DNA of 64,000 bases from Chloroflexota bacterium (GTDB taxonomy: Bacteria; Chloroflexota; Limnocylindria; Limnocylindrales; CSP1-4), in assembly GCA_027364875.1 (NCBI GenBank), contig DAHXON010000002.1, positions 25,192 to 89,191 on the forward strand, read 5' to 3'. Under the pieces are notes generated by a model. It was not told the DNA's origin. It saw nothing but the letters and a program-made list of their open reading frames with translations, and did not search any database. Shown in pieces: positions 21,428 to 42,833 of the stretch. The position numbers and the translations under genes were made by a program. Every line of letters begins with the position of its first letter. Position 1 is the stretch's first letter.

Positions 21428-22231
21428 TCAAGCCAGGAGTAACTTCAATTCCGCCCCAATGCCGACGGAGATGATGGCCGCGCGCAAGGCCGTGGGTGGC
21501 AAGCGACGCCCCACTCCGGAGCCGAGCTGCCCTCCGGCGGTCGAGCCGACGGCGATCAAGAGGGCGACCTGCAGATCGACTGGCCCAACCGCGAGGAACA
21601 TAAGGCCGGCCGCGCCGTTGATGATGGCCGCCAGGACATTCTTCAGGCCATTCAGGCGCTGGATATCGTCCGGAAGGAAGAGCGTCAGCAGGGAGATCAT
21701 GATGATCCCCATGGCGGCTCCGAAGTAACCACCGTACACGGCCGTCGCGTAGAACGCGGCCATCATCGGCCAGGACTTGTGGGCTTCGGGATGTCGGTGC
21801 CGGGCGAGCACGCGGGATAATCGGGGCCCGGCAGCTACCAGGACCAGCGCCACTCCGACGAGGGCCGGCACCACGACGGCGAACGCCCCGGGCAAGATCC
21901 GCAGGAGTATTGCCCCGGTCAGTCCGCCAGCCGCCGCGGCCGCTCCTAGCCGCAAGACACGGGGGCGCTGGCCGGCAAGCTCGCGCCGATACCCAAACGC
22001 CCCGCTGAGGGAACCAGGCACCAGGCCGACGGTATTCGAGACGTTGGCGATGAGCGGCGAGTAGCCCATGGCCAGCAGGGTCGGAAACGTCACGAGCGAC
22101 CCAGAGCCAACGATCGTGTTGATCGTGCCAGCGGCGAATCCCACTCCCAGGATTGCGCCTGCCTCGAGCGGCCCCATCATGCGGCTGTGAAGACCGCGAT
22201 ATGAGTGGCGCGCCTGAACGCCCGCCAGCAC
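21428..22231 (-). CDS. TSUP (TauE/SafE) family anion exporter
   Basis: ORF 21428..22231 (start possibly M18/M19). GFAAGTINTIVGSGSLVTFPTLLAMG and AVYGGYFGAAMGIIM are typical TSUP repeats. Lies 19 nt downstream of lpdA on the same strand. Confidence 0.85.
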   Translation of the reverse strand: MLAGVQARHSYRGLHSRMMGPLEAGAILGVGFAAGTINTIVGSGSLVTFPTLLAMGYSPLIANVSNTVGLVPGSLSGAFGYRRELAGQRPRVLRLGAAAAAGGLTGAILLRILPGAFAVVVPALVGVALVLVAAGPRLSRVLARHRHPEAHKSWPMMAAFYATAVYGGYFGAAMGIIMISLLTLFLPDDIQRLNGLKNVLAAIINGAAGLMFLAVGPVDLQVALLIAVGSTAGGQLGSGVGRRLPPTALRAAIISVGIGAELKLLLA

Positions 22232-22249: not shown

Positions 22250-23680
22250 CTAGACATTGATGGACTGGCCCGACACCGCCATGGCCGCCTCGGCCAGAGC
22301 CTCCGACAGCGAGGGATGGGGATGAACCGTGTGGGCGAGCTCCTGGACTCGCGCCGCCAGGTTCATGCCCAGGGAGCCTTCGGCAACCAGATCGGTCACG
22401 TGCGGCCCGATCAGGTGAATGCCGAGTATCTGCCCCGTCTCGGCATGCGCAAGCACTTTCGCGAAGCCCTCGTGGTCGCCGCCGATGACCGCCTTGGCGT
22501 TGGCCAGCCAGGGGAACTTGCCTGCCACATACGGAACGGAGTCACGCGTCAGCTCTGCCTCGCTCCGGCCCACCGAAGCGATCTGAGGCCTGCAGTACGT
22601 TGCCCTCGGCATGATCGAGTAGTCAACCGGCTCCGGGTCCAGCCCGGCGATCGTCTCCACGGCGACTATCCCTTCGTGAGCGGCGACGTGGGCCAGGAGC
22701 AAGCCGCCGACGAGATCGCCTATCGCGTAGACATTGGGTTCCGCGGTCCGCATGTACGGGTCGACGCGGATGACTCCGGACTCCACGACCACCTGCGTGT
22801 TTTCCAGGCCGATTCCGGAGACGTTGGCTGACCGCCCGGTCGCCACGAGCAGCTGGGCCGCATGTAACTCGCGCCGCCCGACGCCCGCCACTGTCTCTAC
22901 CGAGACCGTGACCCCGGCGTCATCCGCGACGGCGGCCTCAGGGTCGAGCCGAGCACCGACCATCACCTCGATCCCCCGGCGCCTGAAGGCACGCTCGAGG
23001 ACGCGACCGATCTCCGCGTCTTCGAGGGGAACCAGCGACGAGAGGTACTCGACCAGCGTCACCTCTGTTCCCATATCCCGGTAGAACGAGGCGAACTCAA
23101 CTCCCACCGCGCCGCCACCCACCACGATCAGGCTTGGGGGGATTACCTCGCTCGTGAGCACGTCGTCGCTCGTGACGATCCGCCGCCCATCAGGGACGAG
23201 ACCGGGCAGACTTCGGGGGCGGCTGCCCGTCGCCAGTATCAGGTTCGTGGCTTGAATGACGCGTTCACCTTCAGCCAGCCCGTCCGGGCCGGCCAGAGCA
23301 ACCCGGACGACGCGGGAGCTCTCGAGCACTCCGCGCCCGTGGATCAGTTCGACGCGGTTCTTGCGAACCAGGCTCATCAGGCCGCCCGTCAGCCGGTTCA
23401 CGGTATCCGTCCGCCGGCGCGCGATCGCGGCCATGTTCGCTCCGACACCGGCAGCCTCGAGACCGAACGCGCTCGCGTCGCGCATGCGCGCCAGGAGATC
23501 CGCCGACTCGAGCATTACCTTGGTTGGTATGCAGCCCCTGTGAAGGCAGGTCCCTCCGATCAGGTCCGCTTCCACGAGAGCCGTCCGGAGTCCCAGCTGA
23601 CTCGCCCGGAATGCCGCGGTGTAGCCGCCAGTGCCGCCGCCGAGCACGATGAGATCGAACTGGTCCGCAGGTGATTCCAT
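22250..23680 (-). CDS. lpdA: dihydrolipoyl dehydrogenase (E3)
   Basis: ORF 22250..23701. A GGGAG 4 nt upstream favours ATG 23680. FDLIVLGGGTGGY, GGTCLHRGCIPTK, and the C-terminal HPHPSLSEA interface motif. Confidence 0.95.
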   Translation of the reverse strand: MESPADQFDLIVLGGGTGGYTAAFRASQLGLRTALVEADLIGGTCLHRGCIPTKVMLESADLLARMRDASAFGLEAAGVGANMAAIARRRTDTVNRLTGGLMSLVRKNRVELIHGRGVLESSRVVRVALAGPDGLAEGERVIQATNLILATGSRPRSLPGLVPDGRRIVTSDDVLTSEVIPPSLIVVGGGAVGVEFASFYRDMGTEVTLVEYLSSLVPLEDAEIGRVLERAFRRRGIEVMVGARLDPEAAVADDAGVTVSVETVAGVGRRELHAAQLLVATGRSANVSGIGLENTQVVVESGVIRVDPYMRTAEPNVYAIGDLVGGLLLAHVAAHEGIVAVETIAGLDPEPVDYSIMPRATYCRPQIASVGRSEAELTRDSVPYVAGKFPWLANAKAVIGGDHEGFAKVLAHAETGQILGIHLIGPHVTDLVAEGSLGMNLAARVQELAHTVHPHPSLSEALAEAAMAVSGQSINV

Positions 23681-23696
23681 CCGACTCCCACAAGGC

Positions 23697-23722
23697 TCCA
23701 AAGGTTCCGCGAAACGTTTAAC
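23697..23722. promoter_or_regulatory. 26-bp bipartite LacI-type operator, site a
   Basis: tccaaaggttccgcgaaacgtttaac. Lies 17 nt upstream of the lpdA ATG and 153 nt upstream of the first CoA-transferase gene. Confidence 0.6.
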
Positions 23723-23874
23723 ATGATACCCTGTTCACTGCTCGGCCCGCAGGTTGCAGGCTGGAAGGGAGTCTCGAGTGACGTGGTGCGGGGTCTGCGT
23801 CTCGGCGTAGCGCCACCCCCGCGGACACGGAGCCATGGCGGCTACACCACCGAGTGCTAGGAGAGACAGAGGCG

Positions 23875-25065
23875 ATGGGAGCCCCACTCGAAGGGATCAG
23901 GGTCCTGGATGTCAGCCGGGTTCTGGCTGGCCCGTTCTGCTCGATGCTGCTCGGAGACATGGGAGCCGACGTCGTCAAGGTCGAGCGCATTGGGCGCGGC
24001 GACGACAGCCGATCCGTCGGCGAGAAGGTGGGCGGCGAGAGCACCTACTTCATGGTGATGAACCGGAACAAGCGCGGGGTCACCGTCGACTTCCGGAACC
24101 CTGAAGGGATTGAGTTGCTCAAGCGCCTCGCCTGCGAGGCTGACGTCCTGGTCGAGAACTTCCGAGCCGGCACGTTGGAGGAGATGGGTCTTGGCTGGGA
24201 GACCCTCCACAAGCTCAACCCGCGCCTGATCCTGGCCAGCATATCGGGCTTCGGGCAGAGCGGACCCTACGTGGACTACGCCGCATTCGACATGATCATC
24301 CAGGCCATGAGCGGCATGATGGACATGACCGGCGAGCCGGATCGTCCTCCGGTCACCACCGGCACGTTCCTCGTCGACTACGCCACGGGCCTGTACACCG
24401 CGTTCGGCATCCTGGGTGCCCTCCGCGCCCGAGATCAGACCGGTCAGGGGCAGCGCGTCGACATGGCCCTGCTCGACACGGCCTTCTCGTTCCTCGTCAC
24501 GGCCATCCCGGATTGGCTGCTGCTGCACAAGAAGATGGCGCGGCGTGGCAATCGCGACCGATACTGCGCACCCACGAACCTCTTCACCTCGAAGGATGGA
24601 CGGTACGTGTTCGTCGCGGCGGCGACAGACGGGCTGTTCCCTCGCCTGGCCAGAGTGATCGGGCGCGAGGATATGCTCACCGACCCGCGCTACTCCACGA
24701 ACGTGGAGCGGATGAAGCGGATCGAGGAGACCGAGAAGATCCTTGGCGATTGGGTTGCCGAGCGGACCGCGGATGAAGTCATCGAACTCGTCCGGGCCGC
24801 CGGGCTGCCGTGTGCCAAGGTCGCCACGATAGACGAGGTCGTCGAGGATCCCCAGCTGAAGCACCGCGAGATGTTGGTAGAGATCGACCACCCCGCCGCG
24901 GGCAAGTTCCCGATGCACGGCCTGAACGTCCACTTCTCGGACACGAAGGAAGAAATTCGAAGGCCGGCACCCCTTCTCGGCCAGCACAACAAGGAGATCT
25001 ACGGCGAGTGGTTGGGGATGACAGATGAGGAGCTCGCTCGGCTCAGGGGGAAGGGCGTGATCTGA
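23875..25065 (+). CDS. family III CoA-transferase (CaiB/BaiF-like), copy 1
   Basis: ORF 23854..25065. An AGGAG about 12 nt upstream favours ATG 23875. [50 protein letters not shown]. Ends LRGKGVI*. Confidence 0.9.
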   Translation: [396 protein letters not shown]

Positions 25066-25141
25066 TCGTCGCATCCAGCCCGCGCCGCAGGGCTCGGGCC
25101 GCCAGCTGCTCCACGCGAAAACAGACGAGAGGCAGAGGAAC

Positions 25142-26023
25142 ATGAAGTCCAAGCTCGTATCCATGGCTGAGGCCGCCGCCCTGGTCCCGTCGGGAAGCTC
25201 GATCGCGATAGGCGGAAGCATCATCCGCCGCTCCCCGGTCGCCCTGATCCGGGAACTGATCCGGCAGGGCAAGAAGGACTTCACCGTCCTTGCCTATCCG
25301 GCCGGGTTCACCACGGACATGCTCGCCGGGGCCGGCGCCCTCAAGCGCGTCGAGGCCGTCTACGAGGGGCTCTTCCAGTTCGGGCAGTCGTACAACTTCC
25401 GCCGCGGCGTCGAGGCCGGGGTCATCGACATCCGCGACTTCAGCGAAGTCGCGATGGCCGCGCGGTTCCGTGCCGCAGCGTCGGGCCTCCCCTTCATGCC
25501 GACCGACGCGCTGCTGGGCACGGGGATGGCCGCGAACAATCCCGAACAGATCCGCGAGATCACCTGCCCGTTCACTGGTCGCAGGTTGCACGCGGTGGAG
25601 CCGGCCAACCCGGATTTCACGCTTCTGCACGGCTACATCGGCGACGAATACGGCAACGTCCAATTCCCCCTCGTCCGCGACGCGGACGACCTGGACCCCG
25701 TGTTCGCCAAGGGAGCAAAGCGGCTGATCGTGACCGTCGAGAAGATCGTGCCGCACTCCGAGATCCTGAAGAACCCAAACCTCACCTACATACCCCACGT
25801 GTGGGTCGAGGCGATCGTCGAAGCCCCCTTCGGCGCCCACCCGCTGAGCTGCGACGGGTACTACGACGAGGACGAAGAGCACATGTACTACTACCAGGCT
25901 TGCTCCAAGCCCGGGAATTTCGCGGAGTACGCGGACAGGTACATCTACGGCACCAAGGACCACTGGGACTACCTGGCCAAGGCCCTCACCCCCGAGCGCA
26001 TCTTTGCGCTCTCCGCCCGATAG
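25142..26023 (+). CDS. family I CoA-transferase subunit A (glutaconate CoA-transferase GctA-like), copy 1
   Basis: ORF 25142..26023. AEAAALVPSGSSIAIGG, PDFTLLHGYIGDEYGNV, VEAPFGAHP. Confidence 0.85.
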   Translation: MKSKLVSMAEAAALVPSGSSIAIGGSIIRRSPVALIRELIRQGKKDFTVLAYPAGFTTDMLAGAGALKRVEAVYEGLFQFGQSYNFRRGVEAGVIDIRDFSEVAMAARFRAAASGLPFMPTDALLGTGMAANNPEQIREITCPFTGRRLHAVEPANPDFTLLHGYIGDEYGNVQFPLVRDADDLDPVFAKGAKRLIVTVEKIVPHSEILKNPNLTYIPHVWVEAIVEAPFGAHPLSCDGYYDEDEEHMYYYQACSKPGNFAEYADRYIYGTKDHWDYLAKALTPERIFALSAR

Positions 26024-26034
26024 GAGGCCGAACG

Positions 26035-26844
26035 ATGGCGTACGCCGACGACTACACGCTCAACGAGCTGATGGTGGTTGCCGCCTCCCGGGAGCTTCGC
26101 GACGGGGACCTGATCTTCATCGGGGTCGGGACCGCGGGTCGGGCTTTCACGGTGGCGGTGGGGATACCGATCGCCGCCGCCAGATTGGCCCAGGAAACCC
26201 ATGCCCCCAACCTGGCCATCTACTGGAACAACCTGCTCAGCCCGGACCTGAGCCAGATCCCGCCGCGGCTGACGCAGCATCACCTGACGACCTGGCCCAC
26301 GTCCGCGCAGCTGCACAACTGCAGCGACAAGAACGACATGCTTTCGAGACGGCTGTTCGACGTCTCGTTCGATTCCGCTCCGCAGGTCGATCGCTACGGC
26401 AACCTGAACATCACTGCCATCGGCGACTACCGCCACCCTAAGCCCCGCCTGATCGGCTGCCTGGCGCAGACCGACCATTTTGCATACGTGAAGCGACCCA
26501 TAGTCCTCACCGACCTGAAGAAGCGCACATTCGTTGAGAAGGTTGACTTCATCACCAGCGTGGGCCACCTGAACGGCGGCAAGTCCCGTGAAGAGGCCGG
26601 GCTATATCCTGGCGGGCCGTGGCGGGTCATCACCGACAAGGCCATCTTCGGCTTCAACGAGAAGTCCAAGGAGATGGAGATCCTGTCGATCCATCCCGGT
26701 GTGACGCTGGATCAAGTGCTGGCCGAGATGAGCTTCCGACCGCTGACCCCCGACTCGATCCCCTCGACGGAATCGCCTACGACCGAACAGGTACGGCTGA
26801 TTCGCGAGGCTATCGACCCGAACCACATACTCCTGGTCGCCTGA
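26035..26844 (+). CDS. family I CoA-transferase subunit B (GctB-like), copy 1
   Basis: ATG 26035 (TAGGAGG upstream) within ORF 25801..26844. MAYADDYTLNELMVVAASREL...QVDRYGNLNITAIG. Confidence 0.85.
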   Translation: MAYADDYTLNELMVVAASRELRDGDLIFIGVGTAGRAFTVAVGIPIAAARLAQETHAPNLAIYWNNLLSPDLSQIPPRLTQHHLTTWPTSAQLHNCSDKNDMLSRRLFDVSFDSAPQVDRYGNLNITAIGDYRHPKPRLIGCLAQTDHFAYVKRPIVLTDLKKRTFVEKVDFITSVGHLNGGKSREEAGLYPGGPWRVITDKAIFGFNEKSKEMEILSIHPGVTLDQVLAEMSFRPLTPDSIPSTESPTTEQVRLIREAIDPNHILLVA

Positions 26845-26860
26845 CGCCAGGAGTTGCCCT

Positions 26861-26902
26861 CTGGCGGTCCGCTCCGGCTCTCTCTACGGGGCGGACCGCC
26901 AG
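26861..26902 (+). terminator. GC-rich stem-loop (12-bp perfect stem, 18-nt loop) between gctB-like and the next CoA-transferase gene; candidate terminator or attenuator without a U-tract
   Basis: ctggcggtccgc (26861-26872) pairs with gcggaccgccag (26891-26902). It begins 17 nt after the stop at 26844. Confidence 0.35.
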
Positions 26903-26969
26903 CATCCAAACCGCGGATATCGTGGAGCTTCGCCGGCTCCCGGCCCATTGACGACGCGCCTCAGACGAG

Positions 26970-28172
26970 ATGGAAACGACGATGACGGCACTGATGCCCC
27001 TGGACAACATTCGGATCCTTGACCTGTCGCGGTTCATCGCGGGTCCCTATTGCGCGGCGCTGCTCGCCGACATGGGCGCCGATGTCGTCAAGGTTGAGCG
27101 GCCGGGCGGCGAAGACAGCCGGCGCGTCGCGCCGTTCTTCAAGGGCCAGGCCACCTACACGCTGGCCTTCAACCGCAACAAGCGCGCCGTCACACTTGAC
27201 ACGCGCGCGGCCGAGGGCCAGGCCATCCTGCGCCGGCTCGTCGCCTGGGCGGACGTCGTCGTCGAGAACTACCGACCCGGAACGATGGAGCGTATGGGCC
27301 TGGGCTTCGCCGAGCTCCAACGCATCAACCCCCGGATCATCCTGACTTCCATCTCCGGGGTCGGCCAAACGGGTCCGGATCGAGACTCGGCCATGTTCGA
27401 TTGCATCGCCCAGGCCAAGTCCGGCCTGATGTCGCGGAACGGAGAGTCGCCCGACCGACCTCAGCTCGCCGGGACGTACATCGGTGACTACCTGACCGCC
27501 GTATACGCCGCGCTCGGCACCATGTTCGCCCTCTACACACGCGAGCGGACCGGGATCGGCCAGCTCGTGGATGTGGCCCTCCTGGATTCGATGTTCTCGA
27601 GTGTCGGGATGTTCGCGCTGCAGCAGGCGCTCCTCGGCGAAGCGCTGCCAAAGAGAGGCAACCGGGATCTGAATGCGGCGCCTGCCAATCTCTTCGCCGC
27701 CCTTGACGGAAAGATCTACGTCCACGCCGGAACGGATCCCCTGTTCGAGCGATTTGCCGACCTGGCGGGCCGGCGAGACCTGCTCGACGACGAGCGATTC
27801 CGAACGCTCGCGGACCGCATGGCTCACGCGGATGAGATCGAAGCCATCGTGGCCGATTGGGTCGGCCGGCGGACCACGGCCGACGCGGAGCGGATGCTCA
27901 ATGAGGCCGGCATCCCTTGCAGCACCGTGCTGGACCTTGACGCCGTCGTCAAGAGCCCCCAGCTGGAAGCCAGAGAGATGCTCGTCTCCGTGGCGCACGC
28001 AAAGCTCGGCGCGCTCGTGGTTCCCGGCATCCCGGTGAAGCTGAGCGCTACCCCGGGATCCGTTCGGCAACCACCCCCAATGGTCGGCGAGCACAACCGA
28101 GAGATCTATCGCGATCTTCTCGGGATGTCGGATGACGACCTCGACGCTCTTCGCGCGAAGGGCGTCATCTAG
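26970..28172 (+). CDS. family III CoA-transferase (CaiB/BaiF-like), copy 2
   Basis: ORF 26970..28172. [39 protein letters not shown]. Ends LRAKGVI*. Confidence 0.9.
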   Translation: [400 protein letters not shown]

Positions 28173-28223: not shown

Positions 28224-28249
28224 GTGAAACGATTCGCGAACCGTTTCCT
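28224..28249. promoter_or_regulatory. 26-bp bipartite LacI-type operator, site b
   Basis: gtgaaacgattcgcgaaccgtttcct. Lies 16 nt upstream of the likely EamA start at 28265. Confidence 0.55.
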
Positions 28250-28264: not shown

Positions 28265-29242
28265 ATGGAGTCGGTCTTTGCCACTGGCCTGCGATCAGCT
28301 GCCCGGAGTCCGAGCCGCCTGGCTTACCTGAGGGGAGCGCTGCTCGTACTGGGGACTGGGGTTCTCTTCGGGACCATCTCGACTCTGACCAACCTTGCGG
28401 GACGAGAGGGTATGAGTTCGTCCACGTTCACGACCCTTCGAGCGCTGATCGGCGTCCTGGGCCTGAGCGTGGTAGTGGCATGGAATGCCGAGGACTGGTC
28501 CTGGTCGAGCACTCCGACTCGCCAGCGCATCGCTCTCCTGATCGCCGCGACTGCGAACGGGCTGACTAACCTGGCGCTCTTCGCCTCATACGGCCTCATG
28601 GCTGTTGCTTTTGCCGTTGCGATCTACTTCTCCTATCCGGTGCTGGTGACCGTGATGTCCGTCTGGCTCGGACGCGAACGTCTGACCGGTGCTCGAATCG
28701 CCGGTGTCGTCATTACCCTGGGCGGGTTGCTGCTGGTCCTGTTGAGCCGGGCGAGTGGCGCGGCCAGCCTTTCCGCTCTCGGGCTGGCCTGCGCGGGCGC
28801 GGCGGCCGCGTCCCAGGCTGTCTATTTCGTGGTCTCGCGGGCCGGCTACCCGTCGGTGCCGCCGGAACGAGCCATTCGGATCATCCTGCTGGTTGGCGGA
28901 CTCATCTCCCTCGCTGTGGTGGCCGTCCTGGGCGAGTTGAGTCCGGGCGGACTCAGATGGGTTGGCTCTCCGGCCGCCTGGCTGATCGCGCTGGCCGGAG
29001 GCATAGGGACCGCCGCTGTGGCCAAGGTGTGGCTGCTCCGGGGCATCCGTGTCGTTGGCGCGACACGGGCGGCCACGCTGATGACCAGCGAGCCGCTTCT
29101 GGGCGTGGTCCTGGCCGCCGTGGTCCTGGGCCAGCCGGTCACCGCCCTCGTGGCGATAGGTGGCTGTTGTGTCGTCGTCGGGGTCCTGCTGTCCCAGCGT
29201 CCGGCCGCCGGTGCGAAGCCGGTTACCTCGCCGGCCCGCTAG
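28265..29242 (+). CDS. EamA/DMT-family transporter
   Basis: ORF 28220..29242. The TTG at 28220 lies just upstream of the operator, so the operator would fall inside that reading frame; ATG 28265 (GGAGG upstream) is preferred. About 10 hydrophobic segments with a duplicated EamA-like architecture. Confidence 0.8.
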   Translation: MESVFATGLRSAARSPSRLAYLRGALLVLGTGVLFGTISTLTNLAGREGMSSSTFTTLRALIGVLGLSVVVAWNAEDWSWSSTPTRQRIALLIAATANGLTNLALFASYGLMAVAFAVAIYFSYPVLVTVMSVWLGRERLTGARIAGVVITLGGLLLVLLSRASGAASLSALGLACAGAAAASQAVYFVVSRAGYPSVPPERAIRIILLVGGLISLAVVAVLGELSPGGLRWVGSPAAWLIALAGGIGTAAVAKVWLLRGIRVVGATRAATLMTSEPLLGVVLAAVVLGQPVTALVAIGGCCVVVGVLLSQRPAAGAKPVTSPAR

Positions 29243-29255: not shown

Positions 29256-30086
29256 CTACCAGGCCGTCCACCCGCCGTCGACGATGAGGTTCGAGCCGGT
29301 CATGTAGGCAGAGGCATCCGAAACCAGGAAGATCATCGCGCCGTTGAAATCGTCCGCCCTGGCCATGCGACCGATCGGGATGCGGGCGGTGTAGTTGGCC
29401 TGGAAGGTGGCATCCTGCGTCTCGCGTCCGACGCCGGAGGGGGTCAGCGTGTTGACCCGGATCCCCTGGCGGCCCCAGTAGGTGGCGCAGTAGCGAGTCA
29501 GGTTGTAGACGCCCGATTTGGCGGCGCTGTAGGCGACCGGTTTGACGAACGCGATGCCGGTCCGTTCCTTTCGGTAGGCGTAGATGTCCTGAACCGGCGA
29601 GACCATGCCGTAGATCGAACCGACGTTGACGATCGAACCCGGTTTGCCGGCCTTGCGCATTCGTGCTCCTACCGCCTGAATCATCAGGAACGTGCCGACG
29701 AGGTTTACCTCCACCACCTCGCGGAAGATCTCCTCGGGGAAGTCCTCGAACGGGCCGGAGACTTCGGGCGGGGCGCTCGGTTGCGTATCCAGGCCGGCGT
29801 TGTTGATGAGCGCATCGGGCACGCCCCATTTCGCCTCGAGGGCGTCGAGGCCAGCCCGGATCGATTCCTTGTCGGTGATGTCCACGGCGTGCAGGGACAC
29901 CCGGTCGTCGGACGCGATCTCGCCCAGAACCGGCCGGGCCGCTTCGACCGACGCGCTGCGTGAGAAGACGGCCACGCGCGCGCCTCGGGCGTTGAGCGCC
30001 CTGACCATCTCGGAGCCGATCTGGCCGAGACCACCCGTCACGACCACAACTTTGTCCATGACGGAGAAGAGCGGATCCTGAATCAT
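29256..30086 (-). CDS. SDR-family oxidoreductase
   Basis: ORF 29256..30116. An AGGAGG 5 nt upstream favours ATG 30086. VVVVTGGLGQIGS, NNAG, YSAAKSG (YxxxK). Confidence 0.9.
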   Translation of the reverse strand: MIQDPLFSVMDKVVVVTGGLGQIGSEMVRALNARGARVAVFSRSASVEAARPVLGEIASDDRVSLHAVDITDKESIRAGLDALEAKWGVPDALINNAGLDTQPSAPPEVSGPFEDFPEEIFREVVEVNLVGTFLMIQAVGARMRKAGKPGSIVNVGSIYGMVSPVQDIYAYRKERTGIAFVKPVAYSAAKSGVYNLTRYCATYWGRQGIRVNTLTPSGVGRETQDATFQANYTARIPIGRMARADDFNGAMIFLVSDASAYMTGSNLIVDGGWTAW

Positions 30087-30159
30087 CGATCCCTCCTGGT
30101 CTGGCGCCGAGCTCAACTGCTCGACGGTGGGGCGGCCGAGCCGGGCCTGATTGACCAGC

Positions 30160-31074
30160 CTAGAGCCCTATGCCGGCCATGATTGCGAGAACCTCCCGAG
30201 CCGCGGCCTCAGGGTAGGGCGCCAGCGGCAGACTGACTGTCGTCGTCGCGATCGTACCGGCGTTGCGGAGTACGGTCTTGAGGGCGCCAAGCTGCGAGGC
30301 ATGGAGGCCCAGGCCGTACTTCTGGCCGACGTTCAGGATCGAGCTCACGACCGCGATGTGCTCCGCACGGCGCTGCATCTCCGCCTTGTCGCCACGGAGG
30401 TGAGCGTCGTAAAGGCCGACGAACAGGTCCGAGCAGACGTTCCCGATGCCGGGTACGACGCCGTCAGCACCGCCTTCGAGCCAGTCTCCGGCGCCCTTGT
30501 CGGTGCCGCAGATCATGGACTTGCCAGATCGATCGCCCATCTCGCGCAGGATTCGGAAAAACCCCGCTATGTCGCCGGACGTGTCCTTCAGTCCGGCGAT
30601 GACGTTCGCGCGCAGCAGCTCGATGGTCACGTCGGCGGAAAGCCTCCGGCCGACGTTGCCGGGGATGTCGTAGGCGATGATCGGGAACCTGCTTGCGGCC
30701 GCGACGGTCGCAAAGTGGGTAATGGTCTCCGCGTCGCTCACATTGGCGTAGAACGGCGCAGTCACCACGATCGCGTCTACCGGGAAATCCGAGATCCAGC
30801 GCACCTGCTCGATCACACGCGCCGTCGAGCCGTCGACGGCGCCCGCGAAGACGGGCACAGCTCCGGCTACGCTGCCGACTACGACCTCGAGCACCTGCCT
30901 GCGCGCGGCATCGTTAAGGTAGATGGCCTCGCCGCTCGACCCGAGCGCAAACACGCCGTGGACGCCCGCATCGAGCTGCCGGCGGACCAGCCGCTCCAGG
31001 CTGCTCCTGTCGACGGATCCGTCCGCGGCAAGAGGGGTGCATAGGGGCGGAATGATCCCCTTGAACGCCGTCAT
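30160..31074 (-). CDS. dihydrodipicolinate synthase/N-acetylneuraminate-lyase family aldolase (2-keto-3-deoxy-sugar-acid aldolase candidate)
   Basis: ORF 30160..31074. GIIPPLCTPL, VFALGSSGEAIYL, YDIPG, GLKDTSGD (Schiff-base Lys region). Confidence 0.85.
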   Translation of the reverse strand: MTAFKGIIPPLCTPLAADGSVDRSSLERLVRRQLDAGVHGVFALGSSGEAIYLNDAARRQVLEVVVGSVAGAVPVFAGAVDGSTARVIEQVRWISDFPVDAIVVTAPFYANVSDAETITHFATVAAASRFPIIAYDIPGNVGRRLSADVTIELLRANVIAGLKDTSGDIAGFFRILREMGDRSGKSMICGTDKGAGDWLEGGADGVVPGIGNVCSDLFVGLYDAHLRGDKAEMQRRAEHIAVVSSILNVGQKYGLGLHASQLGALKTVLRNAGTIATTTVSLPLAPYPEAAAREVLAIMAGIGL

Positions 31075-31093
31075 GTGGAGTTCCTCGTTCTCG

Positions 31094-32185
31094 TCAGGAG
31101 ACGCGGTGCTTCTCGAAGTACTCCTTGTCCCAGTCCAGGCCGTGGCCCGGCAGGCCGTTGGGAGTCATGTATCCGTCGATCACCTTGATGGGGTTGCGCA
31201 AGGCGTGAAGCGCGCTCAGCGAGCCCCCGTCGGTGTCCTCGGCAATGTAGCCGTTCGGCAGTGCGCAAAGGATCGGGGCGGAAAGCTCGAGCATGAAATG
31301 CGGCGCCATCGGCCGGCCGAAGGCCAGTGCCAGGTCCGCGATCTCCAGGTAAGGAGTGATGCCGCCGACCCGCACGAGGTCCGCCTGCACGTAGTCCACG
31401 GCGTTCTGGACCAGATAGTCGCGGAACTGGTACATCGTGTAGACGTTCTCGCCGATCCCGATCGGGGTGTCGATCTGGCGACGAAGGGCCGCGTGAGCCG
31501 GGATGTCGTCGGACTTGAGCGGTTCCTCGACCCAGGTCAGGTCGAGTCCCCGCAGCGGATTGATCCGGCGTGCGGCATATTCCGGACCCCAGCCCTGATT
31601 GGCGTCGGTCATAAGTGGCAGGTGGCCGATCACTTCGCGGATCTTCGTCAGGCGCTCGATGTCCTCGGCCACGTCGGGCTTGCCGATCTTGACCTTGAAG
31701 GACCGGTAGCCGGCGTCGTACCAGCCCTTGACCTGGTCGATCAGCTCCGACTCGGTAAGGCCGAGGTTGATGCCGCTCGCGTAGACGGGGATCTTCTCGC
31801 GGAAGCGGCCGAGCATATCCATGATGGACCGGTTCTGGGCGCGACCGACGAGGTCCCACAGGGCAATGTCCACGGCGCCGAGGGCATGCGTGGTCACGCC
31901 GGCGCCTCCCAGGTCGTGAAGGAAGTGCCAGGCCTCATGCCAGAGGGCGCGAGGCGAGATCTCCTTCCCGACCAGGAAGGGCGTCAGGCTGTACTTGATG
32001 ACCGACTCGATCGTCTTGCCGCCGTCGCCGGACGTGTGGCTGATACCGGTGCCGACGACTCCGGTGTCGGATCTGATCTCCACCAGCACCAGCTCGATGT
32101 GAGTCACGTGGTGGATCGTGTCGCGCCAGTCCCCCTTGAGCAGGGGGAGCCGGGCGACGGTCGTTTCGATGGACTCGATTCTCAT
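31094..32185 (-). CDS. enolase-superfamily (mandelate racemase/muconate lactonizing) sugar-acid dehydratase candidate
   Basis: ATG 32185 within ORF 31094..32542. MRIESIETTVARLPL..., FKVKIGKP, MTDANQGW, WVEEP, IGIGEN. Confidence 0.9.
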   Translation of the reverse strand: MRIESIETTVARLPLLKGDWRDTIHHVTHIELVLVEIRSDTGVVGTGISHTSGDGGKTIESVIKYSLTPFLVGKEISPRALWHEAWHFLHDLGGAGVTTHALGAVDIALWDLVGRAQNRSIMDMLGRFREKIPVYASGINLGLTESELIDQVKGWYDAGYRSFKVKIGKPDVAEDIERLTKIREVIGHLPLMTDANQGWGPEYAARRINPLRGLDLTWVEEPLKSDDIPAHAALRRQIDTPIGIGENVYTMYQFRDYLVQNAVDYVQADLVRVGGITPYLEIADLALAFGRPMAPHFMLELSAPILCALPNGYIAEDTDGGSLSALHALRNPIKVIDGYMTPNGLPGHGLDWDKEYFEKHRVS

Positions 32186-32238
32186 GCGGGGCGGCCTTTC
32201 ATCGGTCTTGCTGTCCGGGGAGGTTGGAGAGCCTGCGG

Positions 32239-33096
32239 TCAGCCCTTGACGGCTCCGGACGACAGGCCGGCGACAAGTCCCTTCTGGGCGTACATGAAGC
32301 CGATCAGGATCGGGATCGAGGCAAGGACGCCGCCCGCGGTCAGGAACTCCCAGCGGATCAGGTTCTCGCCGACGAACAGGCTCAGTCCAACCGGCATAGT
32401 CCGAGTGGAATTGCTGAAGGTGAACGTCATCGCGAACAGGAACTCGTTCCAGGAGTAGATGAACGCGTAGGTGGCGGCGGCAGTGATCCCCGGGCGGGCG
32501 AGCGGCAGAATGATGTGCCGGAACGCCTGCCACTTGGAGCAACCGTCCACATAGGCCGCCTCTTCTATCTCCCGCGGGATCTGATCGACGAAGCCCTTGA
32601 TCAGCCAGGTGCTGAACGCTAGCGCGAACGCGGTGTCGACAAGTACCAGGCCGATCTTGTTGTCGATGAGCCCGATCGTCTTGAGCTCCACGTACAGCGG
32701 GACGATCAGCAGAATGCTCGGGAACAGCTGCATGAACAGCACCCCGGCCAGCACGACGCTACGTCCCCGGAACCTGTAGCGGGACAGGGCCGTACCGGCC
32801 AGGAGGGCACAGGCGACCGTCAGCACGACCGTGCCGACCGCCACCTCGATGCTGTTCACCAGGTACTCGAAGAAGGGCGTCTCGGTGAGGAGTGACGGGA
32901 AGGCCGCCAGGGTCGGGTGGCTCGGGAAGAGGATGATCGAGGACAGATCGGACGGCGGCGTGATCGAGGTGATGAACATCCATACGTACGGACCGAGCAC
33001 TCCCACCAACCAGGCCGCGATCAAGAAGTAGATCGGGCGGATTCTGCTGAGCTGGGGGACCTTCGAGACGGAGGCTCGAGAGTTGGCGGCGCTCAT
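32239..33096 (-). CDS. carbohydrate ABC transporter permease (MalG/UgpE-like)
   Basis: ORF 32239..33096. EAAYVDGCSKWQAFRHIILPLARPG (EAA loop). ATGA overlap with the upstream permease. Confidence 0.9.
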   Translation of the reverse strand: MSAANSRASVSKVPQLSRIRPIYFLIAAWLVGVLGPYVWMFITSITPPSDLSSIILFPSHPTLAAFPSLLTETPFFEYLVNSIEVAVGTVVLTVACALLAGTALSRYRFRGRSVVLAGVLFMQLFPSILLIVPLYVELKTIGLIDNKIGLVLVDTAFALAFSTWLIKGFVDQIPREIEEAAYVDGCSKWQAFRHIILPLARPGITAAATYAFIYSWNEFLFAMTFTFSNSTRTMPVGLSLFVGENLIRWEFLTAGGVLASIPILIGFMYAQKGLVAGLSSGAVKG

Positions 33097-33896
33097 GCGA
33101 TGTCGCTCTTCCTAATCTGGCGCATGTAGAGGACCACGAGGATCGCGAGGAACGCGGCCTGGGCGACCGCCAGAGCCGCACCCAGTCCGAAGTCCATGCC
33201 TCGGTAGGCAGTCTGGTAGGCGTAGAGCGGAACCGTCAGCGAGGCGTTCGCCGGACCGCCGTTGGTCAGGATCAGGATCAGGTCGAAGAAGTTGGCGGTC
33301 CAGATGAGGCGCAGCGTGGTGGTGATCAGCACCGCGGGAAGGATCAGCGGGAGCACGACGCGCCAGAACGTATTCCAGGCATTCGCGCCGTCGATCCTGG
33401 CCGCCTCGAGAAGCTCATGCGGTACTGACTGCAGCGCCGCGAGAATCATCACCGCGAAAAACGGGATGCCGAACCAGACGTCGATGAAGATGAGGGTCGG
33501 CAGCGCCGTCCCCGGGTCGGAGAGCCATGGCTGGGCGCCGATCCCGATGAACCCCAGCATCCGGTTGGCGATGCCGAGGTTGGGATCGAGGATCCACATC
33601 CACATCAGGGCGATGAGGACGCTCGGCGTGGCCCAGGGCAGCAGGACCAGGCCGCGAATGAGACCGCGGAACTTGATGTTCTGGTTCAGGGCGAGCGCGC
33701 CGATCATTCCGAAGAGGAGCTGGAAGAAGACGGCGCCGAAGGTCCACCAGAGCGAGTTGACCAGGGCGGTGTAGAAGACCGGATCCGCCAGCATCGCCCT
33801 GAAGTTGTCCAGGCCGATGAGGGTCTGTTCGCTCAGGTTCAGCAGGTTCGTGGACGTGAACGACAGATACACCGCGTTGATCGCCGGCCAGATCAT
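33093..33896 (-). CDS. carbohydrate ABC transporter permease (MalF/UgpA-like), N-terminus unusually short
   Basis: ORF 33093..33896. EAARIDGANAWNTFWRVVLPL (EAA loop). Only 11 sense codons (ITEALLILIGF) lie upstream of the ATG before an in-frame stop. Confidence 0.8.
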   Translation of the reverse strand: MIWPAINAVYLSFTSTNLLNLSEQTLIGLDNFRAMLADPVFYTALVNSLWWTFGAVFFQLLFGMIGALALNQNIKFRGLIRGLVLLPWATPSVLIALMWMWILDPNLGIANRMLGFIGIGAQPWLSDPGTALPTLIFIDVWFGIPFFAVMILAALQSVPHELLEAARIDGANAWNTFWRVVLPLILPAVLITTTLRLIWTANFFDLILILTNGGPANASLTVPLYAYQTAYRGMDFGLGAALAVAQAAFLAILVVLYMRQIRKSDIA

Positions 33897-33934
33897 GAAC
33901 CCGATCAGGATCAGGAGCGCCTCGGTGATCTAGC

Positions 33935-35257
33935 CTATTTGCCGGTTGACAGCGTGTTGCCCACACCGTCGATGACGGCGTCGGCGCTGTTCTTCCCGGT
34001 CAGTGCGCCCTGGAACAGGGGCTGCCAGGTCTTCTGGGTGGCGACGGTAGTACCGGGGATCGGCGGCCAGGCGGTGACGGAATTCGCCGCGGCCTGGATC
34101 GAGATCTGCATGTACTTGTTGGAGGCGAACTGCGGGTCGTTGGCGACCGAGGTCACGACCGGCAGGTAGCCGTTGGTCGACTTCGTGATCGCCAGCTGCG
34201 CCTGCGTCTCGGCAAGGAAGGAAATCCACTTGAAGGCGGCTTCCTTCTTGGTGCTGGCGGCGAGGACGGCATTGGCGTTCATGGTGCCCATGTACGTCGT
34301 CTTGGTCGGGTCGCCGGTGGCGGACGGGATCAGGGCGACGCCGGTCTTGGCGGAATCCCACTTGTCGAGGGTCTTGGCGAGCCCGAGGTGGTTGATGATC
34401 ATGGCTGCGGTGCCGGCCTCGAAGTTCGAGGTGATCTGGGCGTAGCCGTCGTTGATGGCGCCAGGGTTGGTGTAGTCAGGGTACGTCGAGATGTACAGGT
34501 TGTTCGAGGTCTTGGCCGCTGCGCTGCTGAATGCAACCTTGCCGGTCGAGTCCAGGAACTGCGCGCCGCCCGCAACGAGGAAGGCAGCCCACTGGTCCTG
34601 GCCGTTCGCGCCACCCCGGATGTCGAAGCCATAGACCTTGTCGGACGGGTGGGTCAGGGCCTTGGCGGCCGCGACGAACTCTTCCTGGGTCTTCGGGACG
34701 GTGACGCCGTACTTCTGGAAGAGGTCGATGCGGTAGTACATGTAGAACATGAGGAACTTGTTCGGCATGGCGTAGATCGTCTGGCCGTCGGGTCCCTTGA
34801 CGAACGACCACATGCTCGGGATGACGTCGGCCTTGCCGGACCAGGCATCGATCTGGGTGTTCAGCGGCTCCAGGACCTTGGCCTGGATCAACTGGCCGAA
34901 CATGTTCGTGTTGAGGTGGGTGGCGTCGGGCGCATTGCCGGCGGCAATCGCGTTGACCAGGCTCTGGTAGAAGTTCGGCTGGGCGATCGACGACTGAATG
35001 TTGACGTGGATCCCGTACAGCTGCTCGAACTGGTTCGCCAGCGTCTGGATGGTCGTGTCAGTGACGTCGTCCTGCCAGTACCAGTAGTTGATGCTGGTGA
35101 CCTTGGCGGGCGCGGCCGTCGGGGTAGCCGTCGGGGCGGCCGTCTGCGGCGCTCCGGAAGCAGCGTTGGTGGTCGGCGACGGAGTCGTGCTCGCACTCGA
35201 GCATCCGGCGACCACGAGAGCGACTACGGTCGCGATGGTTGCCATGCGTCTTAGCAT
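33935..35257 (-). CDS. ABC transporter extracellular sugar-binding lipoprotein (family 1 SBP)
   Basis: ORF 33935..35290. A GGAGAGGA upstream favours ATG 35257. Lipobox MLRRMATIATVVALVVAGCSS followed by a Thr/Pro/Ala linker. Confidence 0.9.
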   Translation of the reverse strand: MLRRMATIATVVALVVAGCSSASTTPSPTTNAASGAPQTAAPTATPTAAPAKVTSINYWYWQDDVTDTTIQTLANQFEQLYGIHVNIQSSIAQPNFYQSLVNAIAAGNAPDATHLNTNMFGQLIQAKVLEPLNTQIDAWSGKADVIPSMWSFVKGPDGQTIYAMPNKFLMFYMYYRIDLFQKYGVTVPKTQEEFVAAAKALTHPSDKVYGFDIRGGANGQDQWAAFLVAGGAQFLDSTGKVAFSSAAAKTSNNLYISTYPDYTNPGAINDGYAQITSNFEAGTAAMIINHLGLAKTLDKWDSAKTGVALIPSATGDPTKTTYMGTMNANAVLAASTKKEAAFKWISFLAETQAQLAITKSTNGYLPVVTSVANDPQFASNKYMQISIQAAANSVTAWPPIPGTTVATQKTWQPLFQGALTGKNSADAVIDGVGNTLSTGK

Positions 35258-35620
35258 TTGCGTGTCCTCTCCCCTGAAGATGTGGGCCAAGCCATCCTGG
35301 ACGTACGTACCGGAAGTCCCGGCGCCTTAGAGACGATAGGCTCGGGAATCAGGCGGACTCCACCTCCTTCGACCGCTCATGGCGCAGGGGCATCAGTGGC
35401 CACTTCGTGTAACGGGTCTGCCGTCAGGGAACTCGGGAACCGCGATTTGGGCTCGCCCTAGATGAGCCATGAACTTGCCTTCGCGATGGACGCAGCTTCA
35501 GGCAGAGGCGCCACACGGCCGTCGAACGTCATTCGGGGTTCGTGGAAACGGCAGGAGAACCTCGGAAGTGACGACGATACGGCCGCGGCCACATGGGCGC
35601 TTTCTGCGTTGCTACCGCGT

Positions 35621-35646
35621 ACAAAACGCTTCGCGAAACGTTCCAC
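35621..35646. promoter_or_regulatory. 26-bp bipartite LacI-type operator, site c
   Basis: acaaaacgcttcgcgaaacgttccac. Lies 364 nt upstream of the SBP start inside a 617-bp non-coding gap. Confidence 0.5.
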
Positions 35647-35874: not shown

Positions 35875-36736
35875 TCAGCTGGTGAAGCAATCACGGAGGA
35901 GGCGCAGGGCCGGCGCCGCCTGTTCGGGCGTGACGTCCTGGACTATCAGCGGAGCGCTCAGGCCGAGCCTCGAGTAGAGCTGAGCCACGTGGCGGTAGTC
36001 GACGACTCCTCGACCCTCGAGCGCCTCCTGCCACGGGATGACGTCTTTGGCGTGGAGGCAGACGATCCGGTCGGCGAGGGCTACGAAAGAACGCTCGAGC
36101 ACTTCGTGATGAGTGGCCCGCGAGTGTCCGGCGAGCAGGTTCGCCGAGTCGGCTACGATTCCCACGAGGTCACCGTCGCGGCCAAGCTCTGAGTAGAGTC
36201 GCACCGCAGCCTCGGCGTCGTTGATCACATTCCCGTGCTCGGGCTCGATCCCGAGCACCCCCCCCCCCCCCCCCCCCCACGCCCGCGGGCGCCGCGGCGG
36301 CCAGCAGGATGTCGAGCTCCGCCCGCATGTCTCCCCAGGCCGCCTTGCTCGAGTTGTCCGGGTGATAGGCCCACATGCGGTCGGGGTGCCTGCTGCCCGT
36401 ACAGAGCGTCACCGCCCGCGCCCCAAACGCGGCGGCGTGGCCGATCAGCTCGACGGCCTTCTCGGTGCCTGAGCGGCGGACGGTCGGATCAGGGTGGGCC
36501 ATGTTGTAGGAACAGGAGACACCCCAACAGGACACACCGGCGGAGGCGAAAGCGGCACGCACAATCGCCGGATCAAGCTGACGCCACTCGGCGGGCTCCG
36601 GGATGGTCGAGAAGCCGATGGCCTTGAGGTTGAGTTGGGCGAGTGTGTAGCCCGCGTCCGCGATCGCCTTTGCGACGTTCGGGGCAGGCCCGATCGGAAA
36701 GACCCGGGCGAAGATTCCGAACTCCGGGGCCGTCAT
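35875..36736 (-). pseudogene. xylose-isomerase-like TIM-barrel sugar-phosphate isomerase/epimerase (IolE/IolH-like) interrupted by a frameshift in a poly-G/C tract
   Basis: N-part is ORF 36170..36736 (MTAPEFGIFARVFP...LLAAAAPAGVGGGGGGG then out of frame). C-part is ORF 35875..36258 (VLGIEPEHGNVINDAEAA...CLHAKD). The two frames meet exactly at the C21 run; a run of 20 or 23 would restore a single ORF. Confidence 0.75.
36258..36278. repeat. homopolymer: 21 consecutive C (G21 on the coding strand)
   Basis: Counted directly: 3 C at 36258-36260, 10 at 36261-36270 and 8 at 36271-36278. Confidence 0.95.
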
Positions 36737-38773: not shown

Positions 38774-39600
38774 CGGTGCTCCACCATCGGGGCGGCCTTC
38801 TGAGCGACGAACTGGGCGATGGAGCTGCGGGCGAGGGCCCAATGGCCCGCAGGGTCCTCGTCGACCGAGGGAAGCGTTACCAGGCTCGAGCCGGAGATAC
38901 GCGAATGCCACTCCTCGGCCACCGCGACCGGGTGCAACGGATCTTGCGAGGCCGCCAGTATCAACGAAGGTACGTTGCGCTCCACCTTCTCGCCGGCGCT
39001 GAAGGCCATCCAGAACGCTCCCCGGTCCAGCCGCATCAACCTTTCGGCCGAGCGTGGCTTTGTCACCTTCTCGCGAAGCGAGAGGGCGGCCCTTTCGGAC
39101 GCTGCCGCCGCGGCCTCGTACTCGTCCGTGGCAATCAGCCTGGCGAGCGCGGTCGATGGGTCTTCGAGCAGGTACGAGGCGATCAGGGCGTTGACCCGCA
39201 GGTGCGGCGGCGGGACTGCCGAATGAGCCGGCCGGACGAAGACGGCCCCGCACACTTCGAGCGTCGCGTCCCGCAGGAGCTGAAGTGCCACGGTAGCGCC
39301 GAGCGACACCCCCATGAGGCAGATCGGCCTGGAAGCCAGGCCGAGACGGCGGAGCAGCGCCGTCACGTCGTCAGCAAGCTGGACCGGGCCGAAGTCCTCG
39401 GGACGGCCCAGGAACTCGGTGTCGCCGTGTCCGCGCAGGTCCGGAGCGAGCGTGCCGAACTCCGGCGAGTCGGAATCCTCGAGGTACCGCAGCGGCTGAG
39501 CTCTGGTCCCCGTCAGGCCGTGGAGGCCGACGATGAGCCCGGGCCTCTCCGGATGCAGGAGCGAGAAGGCGGCAACGTCCGCGTACTCAGGCATCCCCAC
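38770..39600 (-). CDS. alpha/beta-fold hydrolase
   Basis: ORF 38770..39600. GLHGLTG, PDLRGHGDT, nucleophile elbow LMGVSLGA. Confidence 0.8.
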   Translation of the reverse strand: MGMPEYADVAAFSLLHPERPGLIVGLHGLTGTRAQPLRYLEDSDSPEFGTLAPDLRGHGDTEFLGRPEDFGPVQLADDVTALLRRLGLASRPICLMGVSLGATVALQLLRDATLEVCGAVFVRPAHSAVPPPHLRVNALIASYLLEDPSTALARLIATDEYEAAAAASERAALSLREKVTKPRSAERLMRLDRGAFWMAFSAGEKVERNVPSLILAASQDPLHPVAVAEEWHSRISGSSLVTLPSVDEDPAGHWALARSSIAQFVAQKAAPMVEHR

Positions 39601-42620: not shown

Positions 42621-42790
42621 TCGCGCTTTCTCCTAGTTTCATGACCGGTCGCGACCGCCAATGTCGCCTGCCGACACGCTGCCCGCGGGTTCTCGCGCTT
42701 CCTTGCGAGGGGGTTTGGAGACGGAATCGAGACGCGGATGGTAGGCTGGCTTCGCCCTGAACGTCTTCTATGATGCCACGTTTCCATCGA

Positions 42791-42816: not shown

Positions 42817-42833
42817 GCAGCTCCGGTTGCCCG

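Follow-up and report, generated by a model that had tools for sequence, protein, structure and literature searches.

In class I coenzyme A (CoA) transferases, a glutamate of the GctB-type beta subunit (in an ESG/SENG motif) forms the enzyme-CoA thioester, as in glutaconate CoA-transferase (GctAB) of Acidaminococcus fermentans (PDB 1poi). To our knowledge, the only characterised members of this fold that have ceased to be transferases are IpdAB of Mycobacterium and Rhodococcus (PDB 6co6, 6coj, 6con), a two-gene alpha/beta enzyme that belongs to the KstR2 steroid regulon and acts downstream of CoA activation, and AibAB of Myxococcus xanthus (PDB 5mzw), the 3-methylglutaconyl-CoA decarboxylase of isovaleryl-CoA biosynthesis. 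Both IpdB and AibB lack the transferase Glu. Here we consider two gene modules of this kind in a 64,000-nt stretch of a Chloroflexota genome (contig DAHXON010000002.1; “the window,” 67% G+C), together with the sugar-type gene island in which they lie. By Pfam, module 1 (23875-28172) consists of CoA_transf_3, CoA_trans (A), CoA_trans (B), and a second CoA_transf_3 gene (CaiB1, A1, B1, and CaiB2), and module 2 (from 60383) of CoA_trans (A), CoA_trans (B), and CoA_transf_3 (A2, B2, and CaiB3; Table 1). This is the content given in an initial annotation of the window, with the start of CaiB2 moved to 26982; starts were refined from public gene calls on the identical contig (lpdA 23680, CaiB1 23875, CaiB2 26982, EamA 28265). 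The same annotation counted A1B1 and A2B2 as two family I CoA-transferases, a reading that their active-site columns speak against.

In both modules the PF01144 alpha and beta subunits are encoded side by side, as is typical of class I enzymes, with the fold and subunit sizes of GctAB. When the beta subunits are aligned to GctB, however, B1 has AIYW-NN and B2 has CLLAGW opposite IIVESG, the motif that holds the catalytic Glu. Among 68 beta-subunit homologues from the fetched loci, the Glu column is a gap in 38 (the B1 type), Ala in 16 (the B2 type), and Glu in 11. The alpha subunits show the reverse. Glu102 of A1 (RDFSEV) aligns with the sole residue that differs between IpdA in 6co6 (REMDEG) and the variant in 6coj (REMDAG), which we take to be the catalytic Glu105 of Crowe et al. 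(2018). This column holds Gln in GctA and Gly in AibA; its Glu is invariant in 10 of 10 diverse homologues, A2 included, and present in 62 of 77 alpha subunits, while the alpha subunits without it are mostly partners of Glu-bearing beta subunits and carry His instead. Because the beta Glu is lost and the alpha Glu conserved in this reciprocal fashion, A1B1 and A2B2 are probably not transferases, and are probably IpdAB-like C-C hydrolases or lyases acting on acyl-CoAs.

There are differences from IpdAB as well: the matches are distant (E about 1e-30 for alpha and 1e-15 for beta), the window has two distinct paralogous pairs, and these stand amid sugar and cyclitol genes under a LacI-type regulator rather than in a steroid regulon. 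The closest solved relatives of A1 are AibA (1.4e-36, the top match), GctA (3.7e-35), and IpdA (4.4e-30); those of B1 and B2 are GctB (2e-30 and 6e-26, respectively), IpdB, and AibB, the last matched weakly (1e-8 to 1e-10). No specific NCBIfam model (June 2026) exists for A1, B1, A2, or B2, and proteins of these types are annotated at source as “glutaconate CoA-transferase” or “CoA transferase subunit A.” That the fold includes non-transferases is known from IpdAB and AibAB; what is new is two further subfamilies with the IpdAB residue signature, in carbohydrate-type clusters.

A third, distant GctAB type, found in loci L026, L029, L036, L039-L041, L060-L062, and L066, keeps the beta Glu; in most cases where the partner alpha subunit could be resolved, the IpdA-Glu column is occupied by His (EDHSHFGM). 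Such pairs are probably true transferases standing beside the Glu-less ones.

The three CaiB proteins are another matter. Each matches PF02515 over its full length (profile positions 1-366, E 1e-120 to 1e-133), and all three keep the catalytic Asp (the Frc Asp169 position; D175 in a 403-aa numbering, placed by means of the offset in the Frc alignment), a residue found without exception in 53 of 53 homologues. Judged by these features, CaiB1-3 are genuine family III CoA-transferases, as are Frc, YfdE, and SUGCT (succinate-glutarate CoA-transferase); the best matches are to SUGCT (8e-84) and YfdE (9e-78). Unlike those enzymes, they score far below the curated cut-offs of all seven NCBIfam equivalogs compared, which include Frc, YfdE, succinate-glutarate, mesaconate, and carnitine CoA-transferases (for example, 319 against a cut-off of 750, and 314 against 442), so that their specificity may be new.

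The modules are paralogous, as was initially proposed: the peptides quoted in support are present, including the pair VEAPFGAHP/VEAPWGAHP, and identities are 43.5% for A1/A2, 36.7% for B1/B2, 49.7% for CaiB1/2, 55.7% for CaiB2/3, and 44.6% for CaiB1/3. Their divergent orientation from lpdA and from E2-E1alpha-E1beta, respectively, is borne out too, as is the hairpin that follows B1 (-39.6 kcal/mol, z = -4.7). The leaders of the two modules, 155 and 165 nt long, are not unusually structured (folding z = +1.95 and -1.06), and a search of the window against Rfam found no families.

The 40-bp element upstream of each module, described initially as a duplicated promoter/operator region, contains a 20-bp palindrome, AAAsGnTTCG/CGAAnCsTTT (the slash marks the centre). 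Copies do lie upstream of both modules, but the element is not confined to two: there are eight or nine, defining a regulon of some 37 kb. A 14-mer search allowing two mismatches gave 15 strand-hits at eight loci, against 0.22 expected, and a position weight matrix (PWM) trained on the six clearest sites gave eight sites of 22-34 bits (operators 1-8 in Table 1) and a weaker ninth. The operator sites, which span 23.7-60.2 kb, are all intergenic and adjoin operon starts. They head ten transcription units: lpdA-tauE, caiB1-A1-B1-caiB2, eamA1, the substrate-binding protein (SBP) operon, the tkt operon, eamA2, the epimerase operon, lipA(-fucI-GFO), the E2 operon, and A2-B2-caiB3. Sites recur at homologous positions in four close relatives (L070-L073), and related AAACGTTT-N4-AAACGTTT palindromes are found 5′ of CaiB, GctA, or MaoC operons in metagenome-assembled genomes (MAGs) of Chloroflexia and 5′ of LacI-linked clusters in Shinella.

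Of the genes annotated from 21 to 64 kb, just one encodes a regulator: a LacI-family gene in the E2 operon, whose product scores best against the RbsR, CytR, and PurR models of NCBIfam, under every equivalog cut-off. Since the palindrome precedes each operon and this is the one regulator in the span, a single LacI/RbsR-like repressor probably controls an island of about 37 kb (21.4 kb to at least 63.7 kb), comprising about ten operons, and would itself bind the 20-bp palindrome. The operator resembles those of LacI/RbsR-type systems in being palindromic with a central CG, and the sub-motif GCGAAACGTTTCGC resembles the E. coli rbs operator. It differs in its 20-bp form, two AAACGTTT boxes 12 bp apart, in having outer boxes better conserved across genomes than its centre, and in serving eight or nine sites and about ten operons. 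The window thus offers a cleanly delimited LacI-type regulon with eight or nine predicted operators.

For a survey of gene neighbourhoods, one genome per species was scanned, giving 63 loci, whose open reading frames (ORFs) were clustered and the common clusters annotated. The neighbours include CaiB (46 loci), LacI (29), an acetolactate synthase (ALS)-like thiamine diphosphate (ThDP) enzyme (25), parts of a ribose-type ABC transporter (13-23), Dak1/Dak2 (21/19), MaoC-like (18), SDR (16), GFO (15), E1alpha/E1beta (13/12), shikimate-dehydrogenase-like (10), and PfkB (9) proteins. A1B1-type and A2B2-type pairs form distinct orthologous groups, which occur together in Azospirillum, Microvirga, and Cupriavidus, and as one operon, A2-B2-A1-B1, in Erwinia, Pantoea, and Sodalis. 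Clostridium sp. KNHs216 has two pairs with two CaiB genes, a ThDP enzyme, FGGY, and an iron-containing alcohol dehydrogenase (Fe-ADH). In Actinobacteria, either A1B1 (Pedococcus, Subtercola) or A2B2 (Phytohabitans) is linked to a block of DUF2090 aldolase, FGGY, shikimate-dehydrogenase-like, cyclase, alcohol dehydrogenase, and aldehyde dehydrogenase genes. The string E1alpha-E1beta-CaiB-A1-B1 is found in Lachnospiraceae (Firmicutes), where an Fe-ADH, an AbfD-like protein, and a 4-hydroxybutyrate-type CoA-transferase are added, and in Spirochaetota. In close relatives of the window, the E2 operon is divergent from either CaiB1-A1-B1 or A2-B2. Such recurrent neighbours define what we read as the constant core: a CaiB1-type transferase, one or two IpdAB-like pairs, a ThDP enzyme, and a small-sugar kinase. 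Carriers of the clusters belong to many phyla and include soil, plant-associated, insect-associated, and gut bacteria.

In one Spirochaetota MAG, a 238-aa E2 catalytic domain without a lipoyl domain (L017:5668-6384) directly precedes E1alpha-E1beta-CaiB-A1-B1, and in another MAG a like 238-aa domain (L019:3204-3917) precedes PfkB. This suggests a lipoate-independent use of E1.

Taken as a whole, the island seems to us to be explained best, with somewhat better than even confidence, as a LacI-controlled sugar island combining CaiB transferases, IpdAB-like non-transferase pairs, and a co-regulated E1/E2/E3 complex. CaiB1-3 would form the CoA thioesters of a hydroxy- or keto-acid derived from a sugar, or recycle them. 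A1B1 and A2B2 would act at two different steps, breaking C-C bonds of beta-oxo- or beta-hydroxyacyl-CoA intermediates through retro-Claisen or retro-aldol chemistry, perhaps with hydration beforehand; this reaction type and the order of steps are what we infer from the genes, while the gene content, motif statistics, residue patterns, linkage across phyla, and cassette duplication are shown directly. The E1alpha-beta/E2/E3 complex, with its own lipA, would supply the acyl-CoA substrate or the CoA donor, and the co-regulated kinase would phosphorylate a small neutral product. Candidate substrates are 2-deoxy or keto-deoxy aldonates (e.g., inositol-derived 5-dehydro-2-deoxygluconate), L-fucose-derived keto-deoxy acids, and quinate- or shikimate-type acids. 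One scheme might take 5-dehydro-2-deoxygluconyl-CoA to dihydroxyacetone and 3-oxopropanoyl-CoA; in another, a keto-deoxy-aldonate might first undergo oxidative decarboxylation and then be cleaved as in beta-oxidation; and a further one might take shikimoyl-CoA to dihydroxyacetone and 4-oxobutanoyl-CoA. All three are chemically consistent, and sequence alone cannot choose among them.

More broadly, CaiB1, A1B1, A2B2, a ThDP enzyme, and a small-sugar kinase might together represent a widespread, undescribed, CoA-dependent and oxygen-independent route for a sugar- or cyclitol-derived acid, with IpdAB-type C-C cleavage outside steroid metabolism giving an acyl-CoA and a triose or tetrose; we propose this tentatively, as a little short of an even chance. 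The initial view that no described route fits agrees with what was found: the modules reach no NCBIfam equivalog cut-off, there is no curated NCBIfam family for the pairs, and no description of this gene set or pathway was found in the literature. Identifying the substrate would bring a new catabolic route to light and allow the common misannotation “glutaconate CoA-transferase” to be put right.

Several observations weigh against this interpretation. A1 is about equally distant from AibA, GctA, and IpdA, so that the analogy to IpdAB rests on two active-site columns. IpdAB acts on a cyclic enoyl/oxo-CoA of steroid catabolism, and nothing steroid-like is present in the window. If A1B1 is a hydrolase releasing acetyl-CoA, the three CaiB paralogues are left unexplained. 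The ThDP partner varies by lineage, being E1alpha-beta with a full E2/E3, E1alpha-beta with a lipoyl-less E2, or an ALS-like enzyme, and a single common reaction is hard to write across such different partners.

Other roles for the pairs can be entertained. The initial annotation saw all five proteins as working CoA-transferases that shuttle CoA among dicarboxylic or hydroxy acids, and the Pfam matches (PF01144 and PF02515), together with the standing of a true transferase subunit, GctB, as best solved relative of B1 and B2, speak for this. It nevertheless appears unlikely: the thioester-forming Glu is absent from B1, B2, and 54 of the 68 beta-subunit homologues, the pairs of this set that do keep it differ at the alpha-subunit residue, and B1 and B2 are matched by no NCBIfam transferase model. 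AibAB provides another precedent, as a non-transferase of the same fold and the top solved match to A1. One or both pairs might, like it, decarboxylate a glutaconyl-CoA-type (vinylogous beta-carboxy) acyl-CoA made by the CaiB enzymes, whose closest relatives, SUGCT and YfdE, act on C4-C6 dicarboxylates; in the proteobacterial clusters the MaoC dehydratases could make the enoyl-CoA. Against this, the Glu that is invariant in the alpha column and present in A1 and A2 is replaced by Gly in AibA, and the matches to AibB are weak. AibAB also differs in being biosynthetic, not catabolic. We give decarboxylation a low probability, if a slightly higher one than CoA shuttling by all five.

Loss of the canonical catalytic residue could also mean that the GctAB-like pairs are remnants without activity, or serve the CaiB enzymes as structural partners. 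This we regard as very improbable, as the ORFs are intact with a coding-type bias in third-position G+C (GC3), many polar residues are invariant, conservation and synteny of the pairs extend from Archaea-labelled MAGs to Enterobacterales, and both known Glu-less relatives are active enzymes. IpdAB-like C-C cleavage remains our preferred role for A1B1 and A2B2.

Some described or conceivable routes were considered and set aside. A sulfoquinovose pathway, raised by TauE and transketolase, has no support in the literature or the gene content, no sulfoglycolysis genes having been found. The OxcT of the Anaerostipes inositol-to-propionate pathway is grouped by its authors with Pct-type propionate CoA-transferases, apparently another family than GctAB. 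The deoxyribonate pathways of Price et al. are a precedent for CoA chemistry on sugar acids, but use a synthetase, a dehydrogenase, and a thiolase, not the genes seen here. For an anaerobic quinate/shikimate route no paper was found, and shikimate-dehydrogenase-like genes, present in 10 of the 63 loci, are absent from the window.

The similarity between the two module upstream regions goes beyond a shared operator. The initial alignment of their 40-mers holds: 23701-23740 and 60199-60238 are identical at 34 of 40 positions, ungapped. The 60 nt flanking the palindrome are identical at 36 positions between sites 1 and 8, against 17.3 +/- 3.9 for all other pairs of operator sites; the shared flanking sequence includes TTAACATGATA and, at the opposite side of the operator, GGATGGA(A/T)TC, which carries the lpdA start codon in copy 1. 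Leftward, the similarity crosses the lpdA start codon, with ATGGAATCACC in module 1 corresponding to an orphan ATGGATTCGCC in module 2. The palindrome by itself supplies 18 of the 34 identities, which would suit two operator copies of independent origin. Duplication of a cassette is far the better account, however, and independent origin is scarcely credible, given the similarity of the flanks, the orphan lpdA start that persists in copy 2, and the close relative L073, which has the same E2/A2-B2 layout as the window with operator 7 and no second operator. Three other relatives have the E2 operon and caiB1-A1-B1 in divergent orientation (one of them with lpdA upstream), and in these operator-7-like and operator-1/8-like sites are both present. 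Because relatives pair the two sites at E2/caiB1, whereas L073, with E2/A2-B2, has operator 7 alone, copy 2 (60166-60239) is, by this comparison, a lineage-specific copy of the lpdA/caiB1 cassette placed before A2. The recent duplication is limited to this cassette of roughly 70 bp. The gene modules are not part of it and are old, A1B1 and A2B2 being separate orthologous groups found together in Proteobacteria, Firmicutes, and Actinobacteria. The copying is a caught-in-the-act case of promoter/operator duplication recruiting an operon.

Promoters can be proposed for the cassettes. TTAnCAT is invariant in five of five aligned cassettes, and the reverse complement, TATCAT, would make a good -10 for the leftward gene. 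Beside operator 7, every relative has TATACT, at 6 nt from the operator (3 nt for TATCAT). These assignments are tentative because a consensus scan for sigma-70-type promoters and terminators gave none at either cassette, and because an RNA contig starting at 23699 disagrees with TAACAT as a rightward -10. The RNA contigs come from a metatranscriptome of the same mine-drainage study as the source metagenome, at low depth and with DNA carry-over possible. Other such contigs lie over tauE, caiB1 and its leader, caiB2, the genes for the 2-hydroxyacid dehydrogenase and the cyclase, and E2/E1alpha; one at 59947-60179, in the spacer that separates operators 7 and 8, would fit transcription running leftward out of cassette copy 2.

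An IS-type (insertion sequence) integrase gene (rve plus a helix-turn-helix domain; 19787-20986, + strand) lies at the left edge of the regulon next to tauE, and may mark a rearrangement that parted lpdA from the E2 operon.

Table 1. Predicted genes, operons, and sites of the regulon (window coordinates).
Feature	Position	Strand	Remarks
TauE/SafE-family anion exporter, 3′ of lpdA	21428..22231	-	Pfam, public gene calls
lpdA, dihydrolipoyl dehydrogenase (E3)	22250..23680	-	TIGR01350, 487 bits (cut-off 409)
Cassette copy 1: lpdA start codon, operator 1, conserved TTAACATGATA	23668..23741	.	Reverse complement TATCAT, -10-like hexamer for lpdA
Operator 1 (AAAGGTTCCGCGAAACGTTT), between lpdA and caiB1	23700..23719	.	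PWM 32.2 bits; same place in relatives L070-L072
CaiB1, family III CoA-transferase	23875..25065	+	Type kept beside A1B1 in other genomes; catalytic Asp invariant
A1, GctA/IpdA-like alpha subunit	25142..26023	+	Glu102 at IpdA Glu105 position
B1, GctB/IpdB-like beta subunit	26035..26844	+	Lacks transferase Glu (AIYW-NN; IIVESG in GctB)
Intercistronic hairpin after B1	26861..26902	+	16-bp stem, no T tract
CaiB2, family III CoA-transferase	26982..28172	+	Pfam, NCBIfam scores, public gene calls, Asp column
Operator 2, 19 nt 5′ of EamA1 start	28227..28246	.	Motif search, PWM
EamA-family transporter 1	28265..29242	+	Pfam, public gene calls
Operon: SBP, two permeases, MR_MLE dehydratase, DHDPS-family enzyme, SDR	29256..35326	-	
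Operator 3, 5′ of SBP operon	35624..35643	.	Motif search, PWM; kept in L070 and L072
Operon: tkt, iolC, alpha/beta hydrolase, ROK kinase, GFO/IolG-like dehydrogenase, AP_endonuc_2 (frameshifted)	35875..42632	-	
Operator 4, between tkt and EamA2	42794..42813	.	Motif search, PWM
EamA-family transporter 2	42809..43903	+	
Operon: epimerase, Cgl0159-like class I aldolase, iolB	43920..46877	-	
Operator 5, one strong half; alternative reading GCGAAACGTTTCGC	46984..47003	.	Motif search, PWM
Operon: lipA, fucI, GFO dehydrogenase	47034..51288	-	Weak operator 9 inside
Weak operator 9 (TAACGATTAGCTTGACGTTT), fucI start, inside lipA-fucI operon	50124..50143	.	PWM, 15.5 bits
Operator 6, 5′ of lipA	51323..51342	.	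Motif search, PWM
Operon: E2, E1alpha, E1beta, FGGY kinase, LacI-family regulator (53916-55007), cyclase-like hydrolase, 2-hydroxyacid dehydrogenase	51578..59939	-	
Operator 7, just 5′ of E2, then conserved AGTATAG	59955..59974	.	Reverse complement TATACT, -10-like; PWM, relatives
Cassette copy 2: orphan lpdA start remnant, operator 8, TTAACATGATA	60166..60239	.	
Operator 8, in cassette copy 2 before A2	60198..60217	.	Motif search, PWM
A2, second GctA/IpdA-like alpha subunit	60383..61303	+	Glu kept in DDYSE
B2, second beta subunit	61300..62115	+	Ala replaces transferase Glu (CLLAGW)
CaiB3, family III CoA-transferase	62199..63746	+	Homology ends near 63413, then 111-aa Arg/Pro-rich read-through tail

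The 2-oxoacid dehydrogenase set of the island is complete, with E1alpha, E1beta, E2 (lipoyl, E3-binding, and catalytic domains), E3, and a co-regulated lipA, and in this resembles pyruvate- and acetoin-type complexes. It is unlike these in being embedded in, and co-regulated with, a sugar island, and in its counterparts elsewhere: E2 lacks a lipoyl domain in Spirochaetota and in another MAG, and Proteobacteria have the ALS-like ThDP enzyme instead. E1alpha and E2 score below the NCBIfam equivalog cut-offs for pyruvate dehydrogenase and 2-oxoglutarate dehydrogenase. The gene order of the E2 operon is the same in relatives.

Among the sugar genes, fucI, tkt, iolB, and iolC pass equivalog cut-offs. 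The myo-inositol set (iolG, E, D, B, C, J, A) is incomplete: iolB, iolC, a Cgl0159-like aldolase, two IolG-like dehydrogenases, and a frameshifted IolE-like gene are present, and neither iolD nor iolA was found in the window. Homologues of the MaoC, Dak, ALS-like ThDP, shikimate dehydrogenase, Fe-ADH, and AbfD proteins of other loci are likewise absent from it. A branch for aldonates or keto-deoxy acids is suggested by the ABC transporter, the MR_MLE dehydratase, the DHDPS-family enzyme, and the SDR, and the set SBP-permeases-MR_MLE-DHDPS-SDR also adjoins CaiB/A1B1 in Pedococcus and in close relatives.

Some gene models in the island call for comment. The AP_endonuc_2 (IolE-like) gene (35875-36736, - strand) is split over two frames near 36260-36300; since relatives have it intact, at 278-286 aa, this is either a frameshift or an assembly error. 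The MR_MLE ORF (31094-32758, - strand) is open for 554 codons with the domain starting at residue 214, and the protein has 362-363 aa in relatives; the real start lies near 32185, and the upstream part of the ORF overlaps the permease gene. Relatives have the SDR gene after caiB2, or after B1 if they lack caiB2, in the same orientation. In the window (28220-30116), this place holds an inserted EamA gene that has an operator of its own, and the SDR gene (85% identical) lies inverted at the end of the SBP operon. CaiB3 has no stop at the point where CaiB2 ends (...LQASGAI), and its 111-residue tail (63413-63746, + strand) overlaps a convergent SnoaL-like gene (63442-63999, - strand).

Outside the regulon, and unrelated to it, a cluster at 1424-12654 encodes two pyridoxal phosphate enzymes, a carbamoyltransferase, a carbamate-kinase-like protein, subunits of a xanthine-dehydrogenase-type molybdoenzyme, and an amidohydrolase, and looks like a purine or N-heterocycle degradation set. 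The gene at 16000-18396 (+ strand), whose product of about 800 aa combines a metallophosphoesterase domain and two CBM96 domains, contains an internal direct repeat of about 300 nt (74% identity, 624-nt spacing).

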